Virus record (IMG/VR): IMGVR_UViG_3300045988_153314 | Length of the DNA: 41,785 bases | Origin: a virus | Direction: 5' to 3' (one strand) | Shown: positions 9,237-34,912 of the stretch, in pieces | How positions within the stretch are numbered: position 1 is the first letter of the stretch | How the letters are laid out: the number at the start of each line of letters is the position of its first letter | Program-made: the position numbers and the translations under genes | The notes under the pieces: generated by a model | The model's input: the letters and a program-made list of their open reading frames with translations, nothing else | What the model was told of the DNA's origin: nothing | The model's database searches: none

Positions 9237-9396
9237 CACAAAGATAGTATTTTTACTATCATTATCCAAATTTTTCTTTAAAATTTTTCGCAAAATCGTG
9301 CATGGACATATTACTGTCACAGACTGACAGTCGAATTATACCATTTTGAGGGGAAAAAACGAGGCTTTGTTCTATGTTATGCCAAAAGTAGATTTT

Positions 9397-10593
9397 ATGG
9401 CATATTTGAAAATTTACAGCCCTATCGTGAATGAGGAGAATAAGGCGATGACCCTTTTTTTCTCGGGTGTTGAGGGCGTATCTTTCCAAGACATCGACGA
9501 GTTCATATCGTCCATTTCGTCGAACGATAACCTAATCGACATGAGGCTGCATTGCGCAGGCGGCGATGTGATCGAAGGCTGGGCAATGGTCGATAAACTA
9601 CGAGCAACCGGTAAGGAGATTCGTGCGACGATTGAAGGCCAATGCGCCTCGATGGCTACGGTGCTTCTCTGCGCCGCACCCAAAGAAAATAGGCGGGCTT
9701 ATCCGCACGCCCAGATTCTGATACATGATCCTTATATCCCCGAGTACACGCTGGCCGATGCCTATCGTGCGGAGGACCTCGAAAAGATTGCCGCCGATCT
9801 CCGTGCAAACACGGAGAAGATACTCGATTTCTATGTCGAGCGAACCGGAGCAAACCGCGAGGAGTTGGCTGCGCTGATGAAAGACGATAAATGGATCGAT
9901 ACCGCCGAAGCGCAGCGGCTCGGTTTCATTTCCGAAATAATCCCGCCGGCCTCGGCTTATGCCGGGAAAGGTGCGGACGCATGGCCAAATAACAACCAAA
10001 ATAAAACGAGTATGAAAAACGAAAAAACGATGCAGGCCGCCATGAAAAGGTTGGCGGCTCTCATGGGGTTCAACGTAACTCCCGCCCAAATCGTCGCATA
10101 CGAACTCGATACCGAGAGCGGCGAGACGATCACAATCGATAAGCCGGAGGGCGAGGCTCCTGCCGTCGGCGACAACGCGTCGCCGGACGGAGAGCACAAG
10201 ATGCCCGACGGAACGACGATCATCATCGAGGACGGAATAATTACCGAAATTCGGGCGGCCGAAGGACAAGGCGGCGAGGGACCGGAGCCGGTGGCCGAAG
10301 GCGAGGACGAAAAGGATGCCCGGATCGCCGAGTTGGAGGCAGAGAACGCCGAACTCAAAGAACGGATTGCCGAACTCGAACAGGAACTGGAGGGAGCCAA
10401 AAGCGTTGCCAAGACGAGCGACGAAAAACGTATCCTTAACCTCGTCAAGGTAGCCGGAGGAATCGACTGGCTGAAAAAGGTACAATCGGAGTACAAACCG
10501 GCAGGGAGAGGTTTCCCGCAGAGCGGAAAGACGGAGACGGAGGGTGAATCCAAAGTGGCCCGCCGGCTCGCTGAATTGAGAGCCAAAAAATAA
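9397..10593 (+). CDS. ClpP-like prohead serine protease fused to a coiled-coil scaffold-like C-terminus
   Basis: ClpP catalytic contexts GQCASMATVLL (Ser) and ILIHDPY (His). The C-terminal half is acidic coiled coil (ARIAELEAENAELKERIAELEQELE). The start is ambiguous (ATG at 9346, 9379 or 9397). Confidence 0.75.
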   Translation: MAYLKIYSPIVNEENKAMTLFFSGVEGVSFQDIDEFISSISSNDNLIDMRLHCAGGDVIEGWAMVDKLRATGKEIRATIEGQCASMATVLLCAAPKENRRAYPHAQILIHDPYIPEYTLADAYRAEDLEKIAADLRANTEKILDFYVERTGANREELAALMKDDKWIDTAEAQRLGFISEIIPPASAYAGKGADAWPNNNQNKTSMKNEKTMQAAMKRLAALMGFNVTPAQIVAYELDTESGETITIDKPEGEAPAVGDNASPDGEHKMPDGTTIIIEDGIITEIRAAEGQGGEGPEPVAEGEDEKDARIAELEAENAELKERIAELEQELEGAKSVAKTSDEKRILNLVKVAGGIDWLKKVQSEYKPAGRGFPQSGKTETEGESKVARRLAELRAKK

Positions 10594-27076: not shown

Positions 27077-27202
27077 TTCTTGAAAAGAAAAAGCCCCCGA
27101 CGGGTGATATCGGGAGCTTGGGATTGATTAAAAGCCGGCCGGTAGTTGTCCGACTCCGTCCGACCGGACAAAGATACACAACTTTTTTAAAACGATACGA
27201 TT

Positions 27203-28141
27203 ATGGGATTGATTAAAAAGCCGTCTGAGCTTCAGGTTCAGACCACGATCAAAGCCCTGCTGTACGGACAGCCGGGCATCGGTAAGACGACCGACGCGCT
27301 TTCTGCGCCTTATCCGGTACTTCTGGACTTCGACAACGGCGTTCACCGCGTCAATGTCGCGCACCAGACCCCCACGCTTCAGGTGAGCTCCTACAACGAT
27401 TTTCTCGAAGTGATGCAGAGCGGGGAGCTCGCACCTTTCAAAACTATCGTGATCGATACGGCGGGCAAGATGCTCGACTACATGGGAGCGTGGCTCGTGC
27501 AGAACTACCCCAAGCTGGGGCAGCGCGACGGAAGCCTCACACAAAACGGTTACGGTGCGCGTAAGAATGAGTTTGTCAGGGTCCTTAAGGCGGTATCGAT
27601 CATGGGCAAACATCTCGTCTTCGTGGCGCATGAAAAAGAGGAAAAAGACGGTGATCAAAAGATCATCCGTCCGGATATCGGAGGCTCGTCGACCGGCGAC
27701 CTGATTAAGGAGCTGGATCTGGTAGGCTATATTCAGGCCATCGGCAAGCAGCGGACGATCTCGTTCGACCCGTGCGAGAAGTTCTACGGCAAAAATACGT
27801 GCAATCTTCCCAGCGTCATCAACATTCCGAGGCTGATCGACGAGAACGGGACCGTCATCGCTCCGAACGATTTGCTGACGAACATTTTCAAGTTGCACCA
27901 AGCCAATCTCGAAAAGCGCAAGGAGGAAGTCAGGAAGTATAACGACCTGATCGCGCTGATCGACCGGAATGTCGAGGCTATCACCGATTGCGACAGCCTG
28001 AACGATGCGACGTCCCGATTGCGGGATTTCGAGACGATTTGGGATTCGAAGATTCAGGCATCGCGCAAGCTCGTGGCGAAAGCCGCCGCGCTCTCTTGCC
28101 GGTTTAACAAAGAGACAGGGAAATATGAGCCGGCCGCCTAA
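27203..28141 (+). CDS. Sak4-like / AAA_24 RecA-fold ATPase (recombination)
   Basis: Walker A ALLYGQPGIGKTT near the N-terminus and Walker B-like IVIDTAG. Position in the recombination module. Confidence 0.7.
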   Translation: MGLIKKPSELQVQTTIKALLYGQPGIGKTTDALSAPYPVLLDFDNGVHRVNVAHQTPTLQVSSYNDFLEVMQSGELAPFKTIVIDTAGKMLDYMGAWLVQNYPKLGQRDGSLTQNGYGARKNEFVRVLKAVSIMGKHLVFVAHEKEEKDGDQKIIRPDIGGSSTGDLIKELDLVGYIQAIGKQRTISFDPCEKFYGKNTCNLPSVINIPRLIDENGTVIAPNDLLTNIFKLHQANLEKRKEEVRKYNDLIALIDRNVEAITDCDSLNDATSRLRDFETIWDSKIQASRKLVAKAAALSCRFNKETGKYEPAA

Positions 28142-28868
28142 ATACAGGATATATCCGTCACTTCTCGACCGTTTCAACGAGTATCGTTACATCGATGCCG
28201 CTATCGAGAAGTCGTGGAATGCCGATAAGGCCCCTTCCGACGTGGAGGCGGAGATCGAACGGGGACTTCTCGACGCGATCAACCGCGTGCCGTTCGAGAG
28301 CGAGGCGGCCGAGCGCGGCACCTGCTTTAACAATCTTGTCGATGCCGGAATTGCCGGCATGATGAGAATCTCAAGCAACGCGACCGACAAGGCGGGGACC
28401 GAACTGATCCGCATCGATCATAAGTCGCGTATGGGCACGGCCTATATTTTCGATTTCCCGGTGAAGATCGTGCAGGAGTTCGTCGATTACTTCCGGGGAG
28501 CGGCTTCGCAGGTCTTCTGCTCGGGTACGCTCGAAACGCAGTACGGCGACGTGGAGCTCTACGGTTACATCGACGAACTGATTCAGGATACGGTTTTCGA
28601 TATCAAGACGACGAGACGCTACAAGTTCGGCAAGTTTCGCATGGCTTGGCAGAAGGACGTTTATCCGTTCTGCCTCGATCAGATGGGTTGCCGCATCCGG
28701 GGATTCGAGTACACGGTAACCGATTTCCGGAATACCTATCAGGAGTGGTACGACTTCCACTACGACGATAGCCGGCAGCGGCTTCGGGAACATTGCGAAC
28801 GTTTCATCGAATTTCTCGAAGCGCGCCGGGATAAGATTACCGACAAGAAGATTTTCAATAACGCATAA
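28125..28868 (+). CDS. PD-(D/E)xK exonuclease (RecB/Cas4-like)
   Basis: ..YGYIDELIQDTVFDIKTT.. (D...D/E-x-K). Start placed at MSRPPKY; the ORF track starts at 28005 inside the upstream gene. Confidence 0.6.
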   Translation: MSRPPKYRIYPSLLDRFNEYRYIDAAIEKSWNADKAPSDVEAEIERGLLDAINRVPFESEAAERGTCFNNLVDAGIAGMMRISSNATDKAGTELIRIDHKSRMGTAYIFDFPVKIVQEFVDYFRGAASQVFCSGTLETQYGDVELYGYIDELIQDTVFDIKTTRRYKFGKFRMAWQKDVYPFCLDQMGCRIRGFEYTVTDFRNTYQEWYDFHYDDSRQRLREHCERFIEFLEARRDKITDKKIFNNA

Positions 28869-29716: not shown

Positions 29717-30394
29717 ATGAAAGACTTATCTAACTACATTCCGGACGAGATCAAGTTCAATCTGCCGAAAGCGGCGGATCGCTTTCCTAAAGTGCTTTTC
29801 GAGGGAGCCGACTCGCTGGCAGAGATCGAGAAGCTGTTGGCCGACAAGTTCGTCGCTCTGAATGCCGGGCCGAAGGTCGTCCGCTTTCTCGACGCTTACG
29901 AGAAGCAGACGATGCGCAATAATTACGCGGAGCTGATGGAGGGCGACAAGATCAAGCACGAGACGGAGCTCGTGAAGATCGAGGCGGAGGCCAAACAGCG
30001 CGTCAAGGACGCGAAGGAACGCCTTCAGGCAACCCTGACCCGCATCGATAATCTGGTTAAAGAGGTCAAGGCCGGCAGCAAGGAGATCGATTTGCCGCAG
30101 GATACGACGTACCGGATCGCGGTGGATAACCATTACCTGTACTACACATGGGCGAACGGACAGTTCAAGCTGGCCGACGTGTGCCTGATTCCCGAGTGGG
30201 AGCGCCGCGAATTGTTCAACATGCAGGACAAGAACGCGCAGGCTCTTTTCGATATGTTCGGCTTCGACTTCCGCAAAAAGGAGCAAGAGAATCTTCTGGA
30301 CGAGGATATGGCCGAAGGCGACGGCGAGAGTGCCGATTTCGAGGACGACTCGGAGATCGGCGACGATAGCGACGAAACGCTTGAGGAAGAATAG
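29717..30394 (+). CDS. Hypothetical coiled-coil protein with strongly acidic C-terminus
   Basis: 225 aa. The tail is ..DEDMAEGDGESADFEDDSEIGDDSDETLEEE. Confidence 0.55.
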   Translation: MKDLSNYIPDEIKFNLPKAADRFPKVLFEGADSLAEIEKLLADKFVALNAGPKVVRFLDAYEKQTMRNNYAELMEGDKIKHETELVKIEAEAKQRVKDAKERLQATLTRIDNLVKEVKAGSKEIDLPQDTTYRIAVDNHYLYYTWANGQFKLADVCLIPEWERRELFNMQDKNAQALFDMFGFDFRKKEQENLLDEDMAEGDGESADFEDDSEIGDDSDETLEEE

Positions 30395-30397
30395 ACC

Positions 30398-31549
30398 ATG
30401 TACCGGCTTCGTCCATATCAGCAACAGGCCGCCGACGTAGCGGTGCGGTATTTCAAGGACCGCACCGCTACGGCCAACGGTATTATGGTTCTTCCGACGG
30501 GCAGCGGCAAGAGTCTGGTCATTGCCGACATCGCCGCTCGGCTCGGCGCTCCGGTGCTGGTGTTCCAGCCGAGCAAGGAGATACTGGAGCAGAATTACGC
30601 GAAGCTCTGCGCATACGACATCCTCGAATGCGCGGTCTACTCGGCCTCCTGCAATAGCAAGGCTATCTCCCGTATCACCTTTGCCACAATCGGCAGCGTG
30701 AAGAACCACGTCGAGGAGTTCTCGCACTTCCGGTATGTGATCGTGGACGAGTGCCATTTGGTCAATCCGAAGGAGGGAATGTACCGCGACTTCTTCAAGG
30801 CGATCCGGTGTAAGATCATCGGCCTGACGGCTACGCCGTACCGCCTGTATTCGACGCGAAACGGCGCGGTCCTGCGCTTTATTACGAATACCAGCCCGCG
30901 CGTCTTCTCGCGCCTGTTGTTCTTCGTGCAGATCGGCTATCTGTTCGGGCAGGGGTATCTGGCCAAGCTGAACTACTACCGCATCCCGCTGATCGATCTG
31001 AACCGGTTGCGCAGGAATTCGACCGGGGCCGACTATACGGACGACTCCGTGCAGCGCGAGTATAGGCGCGTGAGCTTCAACGACGGAGTCCTGAATATCG
31101 TTCGGCGGCTTCTTCGGGTGAATCGTCGGGGGATACTGCTGTTCTCTCGGTTCGTGGAGGAGGCTCAGTACATTTCCGACAGCCTGCCGGGTATGGCGGC
31201 TATCGTGTCGCAGAATACGCCGAAAAAGGAGCGCGAGCGCATCCTCGCCGACTTCAAGGCGGGACGAATCAAGGTCGTCACGAATGTCGGCGTGCTGACG
31301 ACGGGCTTCGACTATCCGGAGCTCGACACGGTGGTACTGGCCCGGCCGACGCTTTCGCTGGCTTTGTACTACCAAATGGTGGGTCGGGCGATTCGTCCTC
31401 ACCCGTCGAAGGCCGAGGGCTGGATCGTCGATCTGTGCGGCAATTTCAACCGCTTCGGCCGGGTCGAGGATTTGCAGCTCGCCTCTTATAAGCCGGGGAC
31501 GTACTGCATACAGAACCGGACGCGGGTATTGACGAACGTGTATATGTAA
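30398..31549 (+). CDS. SF2 DEAD/DEAH-box helicase
   Basis: Motif I LPTGSGKS, motif II VDECH, motif III LTATP, motif VI QMVGRAIR. Confidence 0.85.
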   Translation: MYRLRPYQQQAADVAVRYFKDRTATANGIMVLPTGSGKSLVIADIAARLGAPVLVFQPSKEILEQNYAKLCAYDILECAVYSASCNSKAISRITFATIGSVKNHVEEFSHFRYVIVDECHLVNPKEGMYRDFFKAIRCKIIGLTATPYRLYSTRNGAVLRFITNTSPRVFSRLLFFVQIGYLFGQGYLAKLNYYRIPLIDLNRLRRNSTGADYTDDSVQREYRRVSFNDGVLNIVRRLLRVNRRGILLFSRFVEEAQYISDSLPGMAAIVSQNTPKKERERILADFKAGRIKVVTNVGVLTTGFDYPELDTVVLARPTLSLALYYQMVGRAIRPHPSKAEGWIVDLCGNFNRFGRVEDLQLASYKPGTYCIQNRTRVLTNVYM

Positions 31550-31552
31550 ATC

Positions 31553-32002
31553 ATGGGACGACGATTTTACGATACGACTTTGATTTTGGCAGGCAAAATC
31601 TGCCCTTACTGCGGACAGCCGACGGAGTATGTCGATAGCGCTGCCGTCTATCACGGAATCAGCTACGGAATGATCTACCTGTGCCGCAAGTGCGACGCTT
31701 ACGTGGGCGTTCACCGGGGCACGGACAAGGCGCTCGGCCGACTGGCTAACCGATCTCTTCGCGAGTGGAAAAAACGGGCTCATTACTATTTCGACCCGAT
31801 TTCCCGTACACCGCTTATCAACCGGATATGGCCGAAATACATTCCGGGCATATCGAACCGGAACAAGGCTTACCGATGGCTGGCCGCACAAATGGGTGTA
31901 GAGTCGGAAGTATGCCACATAGGCATGTTCGACGAATTTCAGTGCGAGTGCGTCGTGGCTATATGCAAGAGCGCATTGGTAAAAGCAGGAGTTGAGTTAT
32001 GA
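31553..32002 (+). CDS. Zinc-ribbon protein (DUF3268-like)
   Basis: CPYCG...C.KCDAYVGVH..LGRLAN..LR.WK..AH..FD.. and ..AY.WLA......CHIGMF... Confidence 0.55.
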   Translation: MGRRFYDTTLILAGKICPYCGQPTEYVDSAAVYHGISYGMIYLCRKCDAYVGVHRGTDKALGRLANRSLREWKKRAHYYFDPISRTPLINRIWPKYIPGISNRNKAYRWLAAQMGVESEVCHIGMFDEFQCECVVAICKSALVKAGVEL

Positions 32003-32838
32003 ACTATATCGAACTGATAAACCTTTTTTGGCAAACACGACGTAGAGTGCGATTGTCCAGCGTAGAGGCCGACCTGTATTTTTTTCTTCTTCAGGAATGC
32101 AATACGCAAAACTGGGAGAATCCCTTTGAGTGTCCCAACGGGTTGATCTGCGTCTCGATCGGTATGAGCGAACCTACCTTGATCGATGCACGCAATAGAT
32201 TACAGCAGAAAGGATTTATCGAGTTCGTGAAAGGCAACAGGCGGGCTCAATCTCCGGTATACACTCTTTTAAACTTAAATAATTTTAGTAAAAACTTTAG
32301 CAAAACCTTTAGTAAAAGCTTTAGTAAAAACTTTAGCAAAACACATAGCAAAACGGCCGATACACCTCTTATAAGAGAAAAACAAAAACAGAAACAACCT
32401 CCTATAAGTCCTCCTAAATCGGAGGACGCTGAATTACCGCTCGAAACTTCGGGAAATGGAAATTCGGGGAAACCGAATATTCCGGGCAAGCCGGAGATCG
32501 AGGAGATCGTAAAGTTCTACAACGACACCTGCCAATCGCTGCGTCCCGTAAAAATTCTTACCGACAAGCGGCGGGCGGCCGTATCTGCCCGGCTCCGCGA
32601 GCACGGCCGGGAAGCTGTTTTCAACGTGATCCGGGCCGCCGGCCGGTCGTCGTTTCTTGCCGGACAGAATACTCGCGGATGGACGGCCGACTTCGATTGG
32701 ATTTTCAGACCGGAAAACTTCGTGAAAGTTTCCGAGGGAAAATACGAAAACAAAGAAAAATCGCAACAGTATGGAAGCGAAAGCAATAGGCAGATTAACG
32801 AGCGCCTTGCCGTTCCGAGCCACTACGAGGTTTTTTAG
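31999..32838 (+). CDS. Replication initiator / replisome organiser candidate
   Basis: N-terminal winged-helix-like region (..LIDARNRLQQKGFIEF..). C-terminal ..GWTADFDWIFRPENFVKVSEGKYENK.. is typical of the phage replication-protein C-terminal domain. Lies upstream of a DnaC-like loader. Confidence 0.6.
   Translation: MNYIELINLFWQTRRRVRLSSVEADLYFFLLQECNTQNWENPFECPNGLICVSIGMSEPTLIDARNRLQQKGFIEFVKGNRRAQSPVYTLLNLNNFSKNFSKTFSKSFSKNFSKTHSKTADTPLIREKQKQKQPPISPPKSEDAELPLETSGNGNSGKPNIPGKPEIEEIVKFYNDTCQSLRPVKILTDKRRAAVSARLREHGREAVFNVIRAAGRSSFLAGQNTRGWTADFDWIFRPENFVKVSEGKYENKEKSQQYGSESNRQINERLAVPSHYEVF
32284..32355 (+). repeat. Six tandem 12-bp repeats (TTTAGYAAAAVY) inside the initiator gene
   Basis: tttagtaaaaac tttagcaaaacc tttagtaaaagc tttagtaaaaac tttagcaaaaca catagcaaaacg. 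Translated as FSKN FSKT FSKS FSKN FSKT HSKT. Confidence 0.9.
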
Positions 32839-33421
32839 GATCGGTCGGCCGGTGCAGGAAGTCCGTGACAATCTGCTGGCCATTTGCGGGCAGTTGATTG
32901 CCGGGAGCGGGAAAGCGGCTCGCTTCACCCCGGCGCACTACCGGGCTATCGACATCGCGGCCGGGTGGCTGACCTCCGGCAATACTTGGGGGCTGAAGAT
33001 CATGGGCGGAATCGGAACCGGCAAGAGTACGCTGATGGAGGCGATTCGGTTGTTCGTGAACGACTACATGCAGCGAGTTCCGCTTAGCGAAAGAGCGTTC
33101 GTCAACATCTTCCACGCCTCGGATGTGGCCGATGCTTTCCGGGCCGACAGCGATATATGTCCGATGTTCTTTCGTTACCGGACTGTGGCCATCGACGATC
33201 TCGGCGTGGAACCGACCACTGTCAAGCATTACGGGAACGAGATAATGCCGCTTGCCGATATTCTGCACCGGCGGGCCGACGAGCGGAAAGTTACGATAGT
33301 CGTGACGAATCTCAACAAGGAGTCGATCCGTGGGAGGTACGGCGAACGGGTGTACGACCGAATGCGGGACATGACGACGATCATTTTGGACGGACAGAGT
33401 AACCGGGGCAATCATGGATAG
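32771..33421 (+). CDS. DnaC/IstB-like AAA+ helicase loader
   Basis: Walker A GGIGTGKST and Walker B VAIDDLG. The start is uncertain: ATG 32771 overlaps the upstream gene, and GTG 32852 is an alternative. Confidence 0.7.
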   Translation: MEAKAIGRLTSALPFRATTRFFRIGRPVQEVRDNLLAICGQLIAGSGKAARFTPAHYRAIDIAAGWLTSGNTWGLKIMGGIGTGKSTLMEAIRLFVNDYMQRVPLSERAFVNIFHASDVADAFRADSDICPMFFRYRTVAIDDLGVEPTTVKHYGNEIMPLADILHRRADERKVTIVVTNLNKESIRGRYGERVYDRMRDMTTIILDGQSNRGNHG

Positions 33422-33618
33422 CGTTTTCGACATCATAGAAGCCAATTATCGAAGGCAAGCGCGCAGCGAAAAAGCCCCCGTTCATAGCCTTGTACCCTGA
33501 GATCGCCGCCCACTATTCGGGGCCCGATCTGCAAGGCGAGTTGGGCCGTTTGGTCGATGCCGGAATGCTCGTTTGCGGGCCGACGGTCAATAGCACGTAT
33601 TACAAACTGAAGCCATGA
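33414..33618 (+). pseudogene. Small ORF split by a +1 frame change at GAAAAAGCCCCCG
   Basis: MDSVFDIIEANYRRQARSEK.. is in the frame starting at ATG 33414. ..KPPFIALYPEIAAHYSGPDLQGELGRLVDAGMLVCGPTVNSTYYKLKP is in the +1 frame and has no start codon of its own. Its TGA overlaps the MTase ATG. Confidence 0.4.
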
Positions 33619-34442
33619 CCCACGCGTCTCTTTTTTCCGGTATCGGCGGCTTCGATCTGGCCGCAGAATGGGCAGGTTGGACTAACGTGTTCAACTGCGA
33701 GATCGACCCGTTTTGCCGTAAGGTTCTAAAATACCATTTTCCGAAAGCAGCACAATATGAAGACATCCGAACAACTGACTTTACCGTTTGGCGAGACAGT
33801 ATCGACGTTCTCACCGGCGGATTCCCGTGCCAGCCGTTCAGCGTCGCCGGTAAGAGAAAAGGCACGGGAGATGACCGCTATCTCTGGCCGGAGATGCTTG
33901 GAGCTATTCGGGAGATTCGTCCCCGCTGGGTCGTGGGCGAAAACGTTCCCGGAATTGTTGATTGGTCGGAGGGACTGGTTTTCGAGCAGGTGTGTTCTGA
34001 CATGGAAAATGAGGGCTACGAAGTCCAACCGTTCGTACTTCCGGCTTGCGGCGTCGATGCTCCCCACTTACGCTACAGAACGTTTATTGTTGCCCACCGC
34101 GCAGACTCAGGGTCTGAAGATATGTGTCAAAGGGAAGACGGTCTTCATGCCGTTGGGGTTTATGCCGACACCGACAGCAAGAGATTATCAATCGCCGGGC
34201 AAACACGGAAAAGGCGGTCTGGATTTAAGGACGACCGTATTATCCGGAACTGGGAAAGGTTTCCGACTGAATCCCCGGTTTGTCGCCGAGATGATGGGTT
34301 TCCCGGTGGATTGGACGGCATTACCTTTCCTGCATGGTGCCGGGAATCCGTCAAAGCCTACGGCAACGCCATAGTGCCGCAGGTAGCACTGCGGATATTC
34401 GAGACGATTGCTGAGTATGAAGCCAAAGGAATAAAAAAATGA
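33615..34442 (+). CDS. DNA (cytosine-5)-methyltransferase
   Basis: Motif I FSGIGG, motif IV GGFPCQPFS, motif VI GENV, motif VIII-like PHLRYRTFIVA, motif X YGNAIVPQV. Confidence 0.85.
   Translation: MTHASLFSGIGGFDLAAEWAGWTNVFNCEIDPFCRKVLKYHFPKAAQYEDIRTTDFTVWRDSIDVLTGGFPCQPFSVAGKRKGTGDDRYLWPEMLGAIREIRPRWVVGENVPGIVDWSEGLVFEQVCSDMENEGYEVQPFVLPACGVDAPHLRYRTFIVAHRADSGSEDMCQREDGLHAVGVYADTDSKRLSIAGQTRKRRSGFKDDRIIRNWERFPTESPVCRRDDGFPGGLDGITFPAWCRESVKAYGNAIVPQVALRIFETIAEYEAKGIKK
33757..34374 (+). other. 205-codon ORF nested in the +1 frame of the C5-MTase gene
   Basis: ATG-initiated and open for 618 nt. The translation contains ..FMPTPTARDYQ.. and ..RLNPRFVAEMMGFPVDWT.., strings I associate with the TRD/motif IX region of phage C5-MTases. 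See findings. Confidence 0.3.
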
Positions 34443-34912
34443 CAACCGACAAGAAAATACTTGATGCCTGTTGTGGCAATAGAATGATGTGGTTTGATAA
34501 AGCAGATCCGGATACGATTTACATGGATATTCGAGACGCAGAATTTATAGCATGTGACGGTAGACGTGTTCGAATACATCCGGATCTGATCGCTGATTTT
34601 CGGGATATGCCTTTTGATGACTGCTGTTTCAAACTGGTGGTATTCGATCCTCCGCATTTTAACAGGTTGGGAGTCAATAGTTATACGGCACAAAAGTATG
34701 GCAGATTATTTCCGTCGTGGGAAACAGACCTAAAACAAGGCTTCGACGAATGTATGCGGGTTCTTGAACCGTTCGGGATATTAATCTTCAAATGGAACGA
34801 GTCTCAAATTCCGGTCAGCAGACTGCTGGAAATTTTCGGACAGGAACCCTTGTTTGGTCACAGGTCCGGTAAAGCCTCCAAAACACACTGGATGTGCTTT
34901 ATGAAAAAATAA
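34439..34912 (+). CDS. Small SAM-dependent DNA methyltransferase (N6-A or N4-C type, DPPH motif)
   Basis: Motif I-like ILDACCG followed by motif IV VVFDPPHF. ATGA overlap with the C5-MTase stop. Confidence 0.65.
   Translation: MTTDKKILDACCGNRMMWFDKADPDTIYMDIRDAEFIACDGRRVRIHPDLIADFRDMPFDDCCFKLVVFDPPHFNRLGVNSYTAQKYGRLFPSWETDLKQGFDECMRVLEPFGILIFKWNESQIPVSRLLEIFGQEPLFGHRSGKASKTHWMCFMKK

Follow-up and report, generated by a model that had tools for sequence, protein, structure and literature searches.

The window analysed here, a 41,785-nucleotide (nt) stretch of viral DNA (IMG/VR record IMGVR_UViG_3300045988_153314; one strand, 5' to 3'), contains at positions 33615–34442 what is most likely, with a probability of about 0.8, a nested dual-coding gene for a two-chain cytosine-5 DNA methyltransferase (C5-methyltransferase) that would act as an alpha/beta heterodimer. 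Two open reading frames (ORFs) are superimposed on the same strand. Frame A (33615–34442) encodes a product of 275 amino acids (aa), hereafter alpha, and frame B (33757–34374), in the +1 frame, a product of 205 aa, hereafter beta. Frame B is 618 nt long and is wholly nested in frame A. The coordinates and the frame A motifs are exactly those described in the original prediction, which had offered a genuine dual-coding locus as one of three explanations. This is the explanation that stands, since selection appears to keep both frames open, its phase changes from one to the other, the beta start is apparently selected and motif IX is found in frame B. What the original prediction missed is the precedent of M.EcoHK31I, an enzyme of Escherichia coli HK31, and the logic of a large and a small domain. 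The features of the locus, in window coordinates, are:

33615..34442, + strand: alpha ORF, predicted large-domain chain of a C5-methyltransferase, with motifs I–VIII, a hydrophilic linker and motif X (PF00145, homologues)
33633–33650, + strand: alpha motif I, FSGIGG, in frame A
33757..33759, + strand: probable beta start ATG, the first after the last frame B stop; it corresponds to A codon 48 (TAT) plus G
33757..34374, + strand: beta ORF, made of an N-terminal extension overprinted on alpha, modules that resemble target-recognition sequences and motif IX (database and profile matches)
33757..34083, + strand: dual-coded, A-dominated segment (alpha motifs IV–VIII; N-terminal ~110 aa of beta), in which both frames appear constrained
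33816–33842, + strand: alpha motif IV, GGFPCQPFS, in frame A
33939–33947, + strand: alpha motif VI, ENV, in frame A
34062–34094, + strand: alpha motif VIII, PHLRYRTFIVA, in frame A; aligns with the motif VIII region of M.HhaI
34084..34263, + strand: beta target-recognition-like region, with module 1 (LLLPTAQTQGLK...) and module 2 (FMPTPTARD, 34159–34185); the variable codon position is the third of frame B (B3)
34264..34329, + strand: beta motif IX, RLNPRFVAEMMGFPVDWTALPF, read in frame A as ...PTESPVCRRDDGFPGGLDGITF (beta alignments, M.HhaI match)
34356–34385, + strand: alpha motif X, AYGNAIVPQV (frame A residues 248–257); aligns with FGNSVVINV of M.HhaI in the spliced query described below

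The beta stop TAG (34372–34374) falls within the Ile-Val codons of motif X in frame A. Within the overlap, GGGTTTCCCGG encodes G-F-P in both frames, as had been pointed out in the original prediction.

Motif content of alpha and beta

Frame A matches PF00145 with E=1.4e-45 over residues 1–167 only, corresponding to profile positions 1–167 of 324, and scores 128.6 bits against TIGR00675 (cut-off 100.65). Its alignment with M.HhaI spans residues 5–166. Motifs I–VIII, including the catalytic PCQ and ENV, are present in this part. Neither the Pfam nor the M.HhaI alignment has a match past about residue 167, and therefore frame A is without motif IX, in agreement with the original prediction. More than 8000 full-length homologues of alpha are conserved at both ends, with motif X invariant or nearly so, and are hypervariable in the middle. 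The middle segment is poorly conserved, rich in Gly, Arg, Ser, Glu and Asp and has a mean hydropathy of -0.98, for which a tolerated linker is the simplest reading. From motif VIII to motif X, alpha is the out-of-frame reading of beta.

Beta belongs to a conserved protein family. The C-terminal 99 aa of frame B match 120 short database proteins with E down to 1e-35, and LNPRFVAEMMGFPxDWTxLPF is nearly invariant in the beta alignment. The beta-family profile was scored against 1.84 billion representative proteins, with 16,383 matches at E<=1e-3 and 729 at E<=1e-30. The top matches are 200–660 aa long and end just past motif IX, and their N-termini resemble that of frame B in the window (SGRKC.E...GSWAKTF..LLIG..WYS.RC.LTWK...). 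Frame B also matches phrog_1008 (E=6e-19). The profile search with frame B that the original prediction had proposed as a check therefore returned highly significant matches, and the two motifs that it had named from other phage enzymes, PTPTAxD and LNPxFxExxMGFPxxWT, are both correct. Neither Pfam nor NCBIfam has a match to frame B alone, Pfam has none to the longer beta proteins, and the beta-family profile matched no sequence in the PDB. A word-indexed search with the N-terminal 110 aa of beta found only six close relatives and no independent stand-alone family.

The distribution of motifs over the two frames is collinear with that of a single-chain enzyme. A spliced query was composed of frame A residues 1–160, the beta recognition/motif IX segment and the frame A C-terminus. 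With phmmer, it aligns with M.HhaI in two pieces, namely, residues 5–161 on HhaI 16–171, and GGLDL...RLNPRFVAEMMGFPVDWTALPF..ESVKAYGNAIVPQV on HhaI 256–312 (RKLHPRECARVMGYPDSYKV...FGNSVV), and the gap between motifs IX and X is two residues only. Splicing raises the M.HhaI score from 70.5 to 80.2 bits. The Pfam score also goes up, from 156.6 to 164.7 bits, and a further stretch of the query is then matched. By hhalign, the beta profile falls on M.HhaI 266–296 (E=7e-4). In C5-methyltransferases, the large domain consists of motifs I–VIII along with motif X, the small domain of the variable region and motif IX (PMC3404938). This published layout, together with the A-B-A collinearity with M.HhaI, suggests that alpha corresponds to the large domain and beta to the small one.

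The recognition-like part of beta is modular. The number of PTPTAxD modules per beta ranges from 0 to 6 in the sampled loci, with a spacing of 28–48 aa, and is higher in database proteins. The region before motif IX varies in length by whole LLPTPTAxD-containing blocks, with frame B always kept. Two close relatives of the window gene are informative in this respect. L171 has one extra PTPTAxD module of 36 aa, and both frames stay open. In L172 the recognition-module region has been replaced, as seen from 64 nt differences over 84 codons versus 19 over the 113 codons upstream, and again both frames are open. These changes suggest modular exchange of specificity elements. Because of the varying module number, the extra module in L171 and the replaced region in L172, we infer that beta is probably the determinant of target specificity.

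These observations are consistent with the following mechanism. Alpha would provide the catalytic, AdoMet-binding large domain, made of motifs I–VIII, the tolerated linker and motif X. Beta would be initiated independently at the ATG at 33757 and would provide the small domain, with recognition modules of the PTPTAxD type and motif IX, following an extension of ~110 aa overprinted on alpha motifs IV–VIII. The two chains would assemble into one active enzyme, as in M.EcoHK31I, which would most likely methylate the phage DNA and so evade host restriction. We infer that both proteins would be made and form a heterodimer, each dependent on the other for activity.

Selection on the two reading frames

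For comparison, 160 related loci were fetched, to which genomes across many phyla and viral contigs contributed 80 each, and loci of annotated phages and plasmids were added. The layout was examined with family hidden Markov models on three-frame translations of 168 loci. In 149 of these, motif IX is in the +1 frame and motif X in frame 0, and frame A is unbroken from motif I to motif X. Single-sequence queries recovered the same layout in 116 of 161 loci. Most of the loci outside the 149 are incomplete contigs or have one disruption of a frame. In the interval from motif VIII to motif X, which is 58–282 codons long (median 120), the +1 frame contains no stop in 112 of the 116 loci and one stop in the other four, versus 2–20 stops in the +2 frame of every locus. 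Frame B stops are common at A codons 1–38 and again from codon 246; at A codons 39–245 there is no column with a frame B stop in at least 10% of the loci. Frame B is open far beyond chance. With the frame A protein of the window held fixed and synonymous codons resampled, the mean is 4.9 stops in the +1 frame over A codons 48–252 (P(0)=0.0028), and the actual +2 frame has 11 stops across these codons. Beta is also intact in all four of the closest relatives examined, and the intactness of frame B, another check named in the original prediction, extends to distant relatives as well.

Several loci depart from this layout. Three are rare 1-nt variants (L169, at 1714–2422, L061 and L155), in which a single ORF leads from alpha, up to motif VIII, directly into the recognition region and motif IX of beta, and motif X is left out of that frame. 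They may represent natural fusions, pseudogenes or errors of assembly. In four others, L037, L038 and L043 from Bacteroides and L168 from Mucilaginibacter FT3.2, beta is intact and alpha is interrupted between motifs VIII and X or earlier. The latter may be decaying copies, or alpha may be split further.

Which frame is selected is indicated by the variation at codon positions. Each B codon comprises the second and third positions of an A codon (A2, A3) and the first position of the next one (A1), and therefore the third position of frame B is the first position of frame A. Nucleotide entropy peaks at A3 over A codons 1–160 and 241–270, and at B3 over beta residues 111–195. In the GLLPTPTAxD block, B3, B1 and B2 have 1.76, 0.95 and 0.69 bits, respectively. 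In motif IX, it is 0.93–1.15 bits at B3 versus 0.43–0.67 at the other two positions. This succession of entropy peaks, at A3, then B3, then A3, indicates that the selective phase goes from A to B directly after motif VIII and back to A just before motif X. Frame A residues opposite the third positions of frame B vary freely (R/G/C/S, E/Q/K, V/L/I), which suggests that the semi-conserved frame A string FPTxSPVCxxDDGxxxxLDGITF is a shadow of beta motif IX. The third explanation of the original prediction, in which two methyltransferase families are frame-shifted readings of one ancestor, does not hold, since FPTxSPVCxxDDGxxxxLDGI of frame A would be such a shadow and not a second motif.

The shadow string is also found in one beta-type database protein of 660 aa (P0259), in which FPTQSPV... 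and then motif X come after motif IX without a change of frame. This implies a probable duplication of the motif IX segment, with the beta chain fused to motif X.

Synonymous variation in frame A is strongly suppressed over the stretch in which frame B is open, as a comparison suggested in the original prediction makes clear. Four-fold sites in A codons 1–38 and 246–268, which lie outside the beta ORF, served as the reference. The entropies at frame A four-fold sites are:

A codons 1–38 and 246–268, outside the beta ORF: 1.83 bits (reference)
A codons 39–89: 1.52 bits (p=6e-4)
A codons 90–160: 1.19 bits (p=6e-6)
A codons 211–245, the motif IX segment: 0.66 bits (p=3e-5)

Some frame A codons are essentially frozen, namely, V111 GTT, V126 GTG, P139 CCG, A144 GCT, G228 GGG (106/106) and P230 CCC. 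Judged by these four-fold sites, site-specific constraint is also evident on the N-terminal 110 residues of beta.

Synonymous codon choice appears to keep each frame open where the other one dominates. In A-synonymous shuffles of A codons 39–160, 4.11 stops per locus are expected in the +1 frame and 0.25 are observed; the +2 control shows no depletion (7.92 expected, 8.04 observed). In B-synonymous shuffles of the middle segment, 4.57 frame A stops are expected and none is observed, versus 7.95 expected and 8.54 observed in the third-frame control.

Probable start of beta and alternative readings

The first frame B ATG lies 130–148 nt past the alpha start in 75 of 112 loci, and the offset in the window is 142 nt (33757). 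In 92 of the 112 loci, a frame B ATG is present at A codons 40–52 and is followed by a frame open through to motif IX. At A codon 48, where the next base is G, which creates the ATG, the T:C ratio is 56:7 versus 205:197 in the background (Fisher p=3e-9). The beta start ATG thus appears to be under selection at A codons 40–52. Signs of a Shine-Dalgarno sequence upstream of the beta start are ambiguous in the one Bacillus locus inspected.

The same frame organization could in principle serve programmed frameshifting, by which a single chain would be produced through a +1 shift into frame B after motif VIII and a -1 shift back to frame A before motif X. Such shifts would recreate the canonical polypeptide with motifs I–VIII, target-recognition domain (TRD), motif IX and motif X, possibly beside the unshifted frame A product. 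The A-B-A order is indeed exactly collinear with M.HhaI, with the native spacing between motifs IX and X, and the rare 1-nt variants L169, L061 and L155 fuse the N-terminal part of alpha to the beta recognition region and motif IX. However, two separate shifts are required, and a conserved slippery heptamer, sought at A codons 150–168 and 236–256 in 112 loci, was not found at either junction. Frame B is moreover open for ~110 codons upstream of the first junction and has a selected ATG there, neither of which is needed for a frameshift product; both fit an independently initiated protein. In the M.EcoHK31I precedent, beta is made as a separate chain. Frameshifting was therefore rejected as the main mechanism on the lack of a conserved slippery sequence at either junction, and we regard it as improbable. 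The +1 frameshift product with a second specificity that the original prediction had proposed is not supported either, on account of the two shifts, the missing slippery site and the selected ATG ~110 codons upstream.

A second alternative accepts beta as a real protein, for example, a regulator or a DNA-binding factor, and denies that it is a methyltransferase subunit. Alpha would then be active alone, with its middle segment as a novel recognition region. The absence of any Pfam or NCBIfam domain in beta and the mostly low confidence of its structure predicted alone are compatible with this possibility. Nevertheless, alpha is without motif IX, and its hydrophilic, hypervariable middle is most variable at its own first codon positions. 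The only match to motif IX is in beta, at the canonical position. This alternative is thus quite improbable. That frame B is untranslated, with its openness and conservation as by-products of frame A conservation and codon usage, is extremely improbable and is contradicted by the comparative data. In its favour are the lack of annotation of frame B in most records and the long alternative-frame ORFs present in other parts of the window. Against it, selection changes its phase to that of frame B, stop depletion affects +1 and not +2, insertions and deletions in the variable region leave frame B intact, the four-fold sites of frame A are frozen, motif IX is matched and the G+C content of the window is only 50%. 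Frame B conservation as no more than a shadow of frame A was rejected on the codon-phase, stop-depletion and indel evidence. The G+C content is 50.2%, and the genome is therefore not GC-rich, as it had been called in the original prediction.

Several points count against a nested gene for a two-chain enzyme. The call of motif IX comes from a short domain alignment of 11 bits and an hhalign probability of 26%. Broken or re-phased frames are found in ~10% of the loci, and the loci used in the test of frame A openness had been pre-selected for an intact alpha ORF, which introduces an ascertainment bias. Structure prediction was of little help: the AlphaFold2 model of alpha, from a 19-sequence alignment, has a pLDDT of 36 and is unusable, the beta model (pLDDT 57) is confident only at a hairpin (residues 121–130) and at the motif IX helix, and a Foldseek search of the beta model against the PDB found nothing. 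Finally, the evidence that both chains would be produced and required is evolutionary, namely, the selection on both frames and on the beta ATG.

Genome context, distribution and known systems

The gene is located in a phage-like replication module. Upstream of alpha is a DnaC-like helicase loader (32771–33421, + strand; phrog_3277 and phrog_50). Downstream is a second small DNA methyltransferase (34439–34912, + strand) of 157 aa, with a DPPH motif and a match to phrog_954 (E=1.5e-74). The ATG of this second gene and the stop codon of alpha overlap (ATGA). Next to the nested C5 gene of Porphyromonas phage BK068099 (L162, 343–930), and likewise in L169 (1054–1551), there is a homologue of the small methyltransferase. 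No restriction enzyme is adjacent to the window gene. The replication-module context and the absence of an adjacent restriction enzyme suggest that the enzyme is an orphan with an anti-restriction role.

Elsewhere in the window, an antisense ORF (32795–33445, - strand) of exactly the same length (216 aa) mirrors the DnaC-like ORF. Other pairs of long antisense ORFs are 9346–10593 (+) and 9598–10485 (-), 27128–28177 (-) and 27203–28141 (+), and 29726–31918 (-) and 30398–31549 (+).

Annotation of related loci is incomplete. In Bacteroides phage BKO1-TP3, Synechococcus phage S-H1 and a Bacillus tropicus plasmid, the annotation is limited to alpha. In Porphyromonas phage BK068099, by contrast, the nested beta ORF (1117–1734) is annotated as a 'hypothetical protein' of 204 aa, and the enclosing C5-methyltransferase ORF of 328 aa (906–1892) is omitted. 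The architecture was not described as a widespread family in the papers found by our literature search, which is no proof of novelty.

We incline, if only by a little, to a broader reading in which a very large and ancient clade of 'Dcm-like' methyltransferases of phages and mobile elements is obligately two-chain and nested, with modular specificity carried by beta and the TRD of M.EcoHK31I mis-assigned to alpha. This clade would comprise the 16,383 representative beta clusters (50% identity) and ~90% of the sampled loci, and would be spread over Bacteroidota, Bacillota, candidate phyla radiation (CPR), Proteobacteria and cyanophages. Its members would have ~200 dual-coded codons, ~110 of them with both frames selected. 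Beta would be an essentially unannotated family, of which M.EcoHK31I would be the only studied member, and the FPTxSPVCxxDDG string that looks 'conserved' in annotated enzymes would be a shadow of the other frame. If this is true family-wide, thousands of annotated 'DNA cytosine methyltransferase' genes represent half an enzyme, the specificity-determining subunit being absent from annotation and without a Pfam model, and heterologous expression or prediction of specificity from the alpha ORF alone would be misleading.

In prokaryotes and phages, long overlaps between genes on the same strand are rare, and reports of them are often contested. For the fully nested 618-nt pair described here, the comparative evidence is unusually clean and there is a biochemical precedent. 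The locus is a natural system for studying the co-evolution of two proteins on one sequence, in which the selective phase alternates between the frames and entire recognition modules are gained or exchanged with both frames left open.

Compared with single-chain C5-methyltransferases such as M.HhaI and M.HaeIII (PF00145), the window locus has the same order of motifs I–VIII, recognition region, motif IX and motif X and the same two-domain logic. It differs in that the small-domain segment is in the +1 frame, would be a separate chain and has an extra N-terminal extension of ~110 aa. The multispecific C5-methyltransferases of Bacillus phages (SPR, phi3T, rho11s) carry tandem exchangeable recognition modules in the variable region. 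Beta resembles them in its tandem, exchangeable modules, whereas the Bacillus-phage enzymes are single chains.

M.AquI from Agmenellum quadruplicatum (CYCGRG) is a two-chain C5-methyltransferase split in the variable region, and its chains reconstitute one enzyme (PMC3404938). The split is linear, with motifs I–VIII plus a portion of the variable region on alpha and the rest of that region with motifs IX and X on the second chain. Therefore, it does not fit the window locus, where the alpha frame contains motif X and where beta, which stops inside motif X, is an internal nested cassette rather than a C-terminal fragment. An M.AquI-type split was rejected on these grounds.

The closest known system is M.EcoHK31I, reportedly first described by Lee, Kam and Shaw in 1995. 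In this enzyme, which recognizes YGGCCR, beta is encoded within alpha in another frame and both chains are needed for activity (PMC2836561). [quoted passage not shown] A DNA search of 5,426 E. coli genomes for an EcoHK31I-like relative returned no match, and the comparison was made with the published description. The window locus shares with M.EcoHK31I a beta wholly inside alpha, on the same strand and in another frame, and the distribution of motifs I–VIII and X on alpha and IX on beta. Two differences are apparent. The published TRD of M.EcoHK31I is on alpha, whereas the conserved PTPTAxD modules of the window gene are only in beta, and the window gene is a phage gene without an adjacent restriction enzyme, in a very large clade. 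The nested two-chain architecture is therefore already known from M.EcoHK31I, and the window locus would join that kind.

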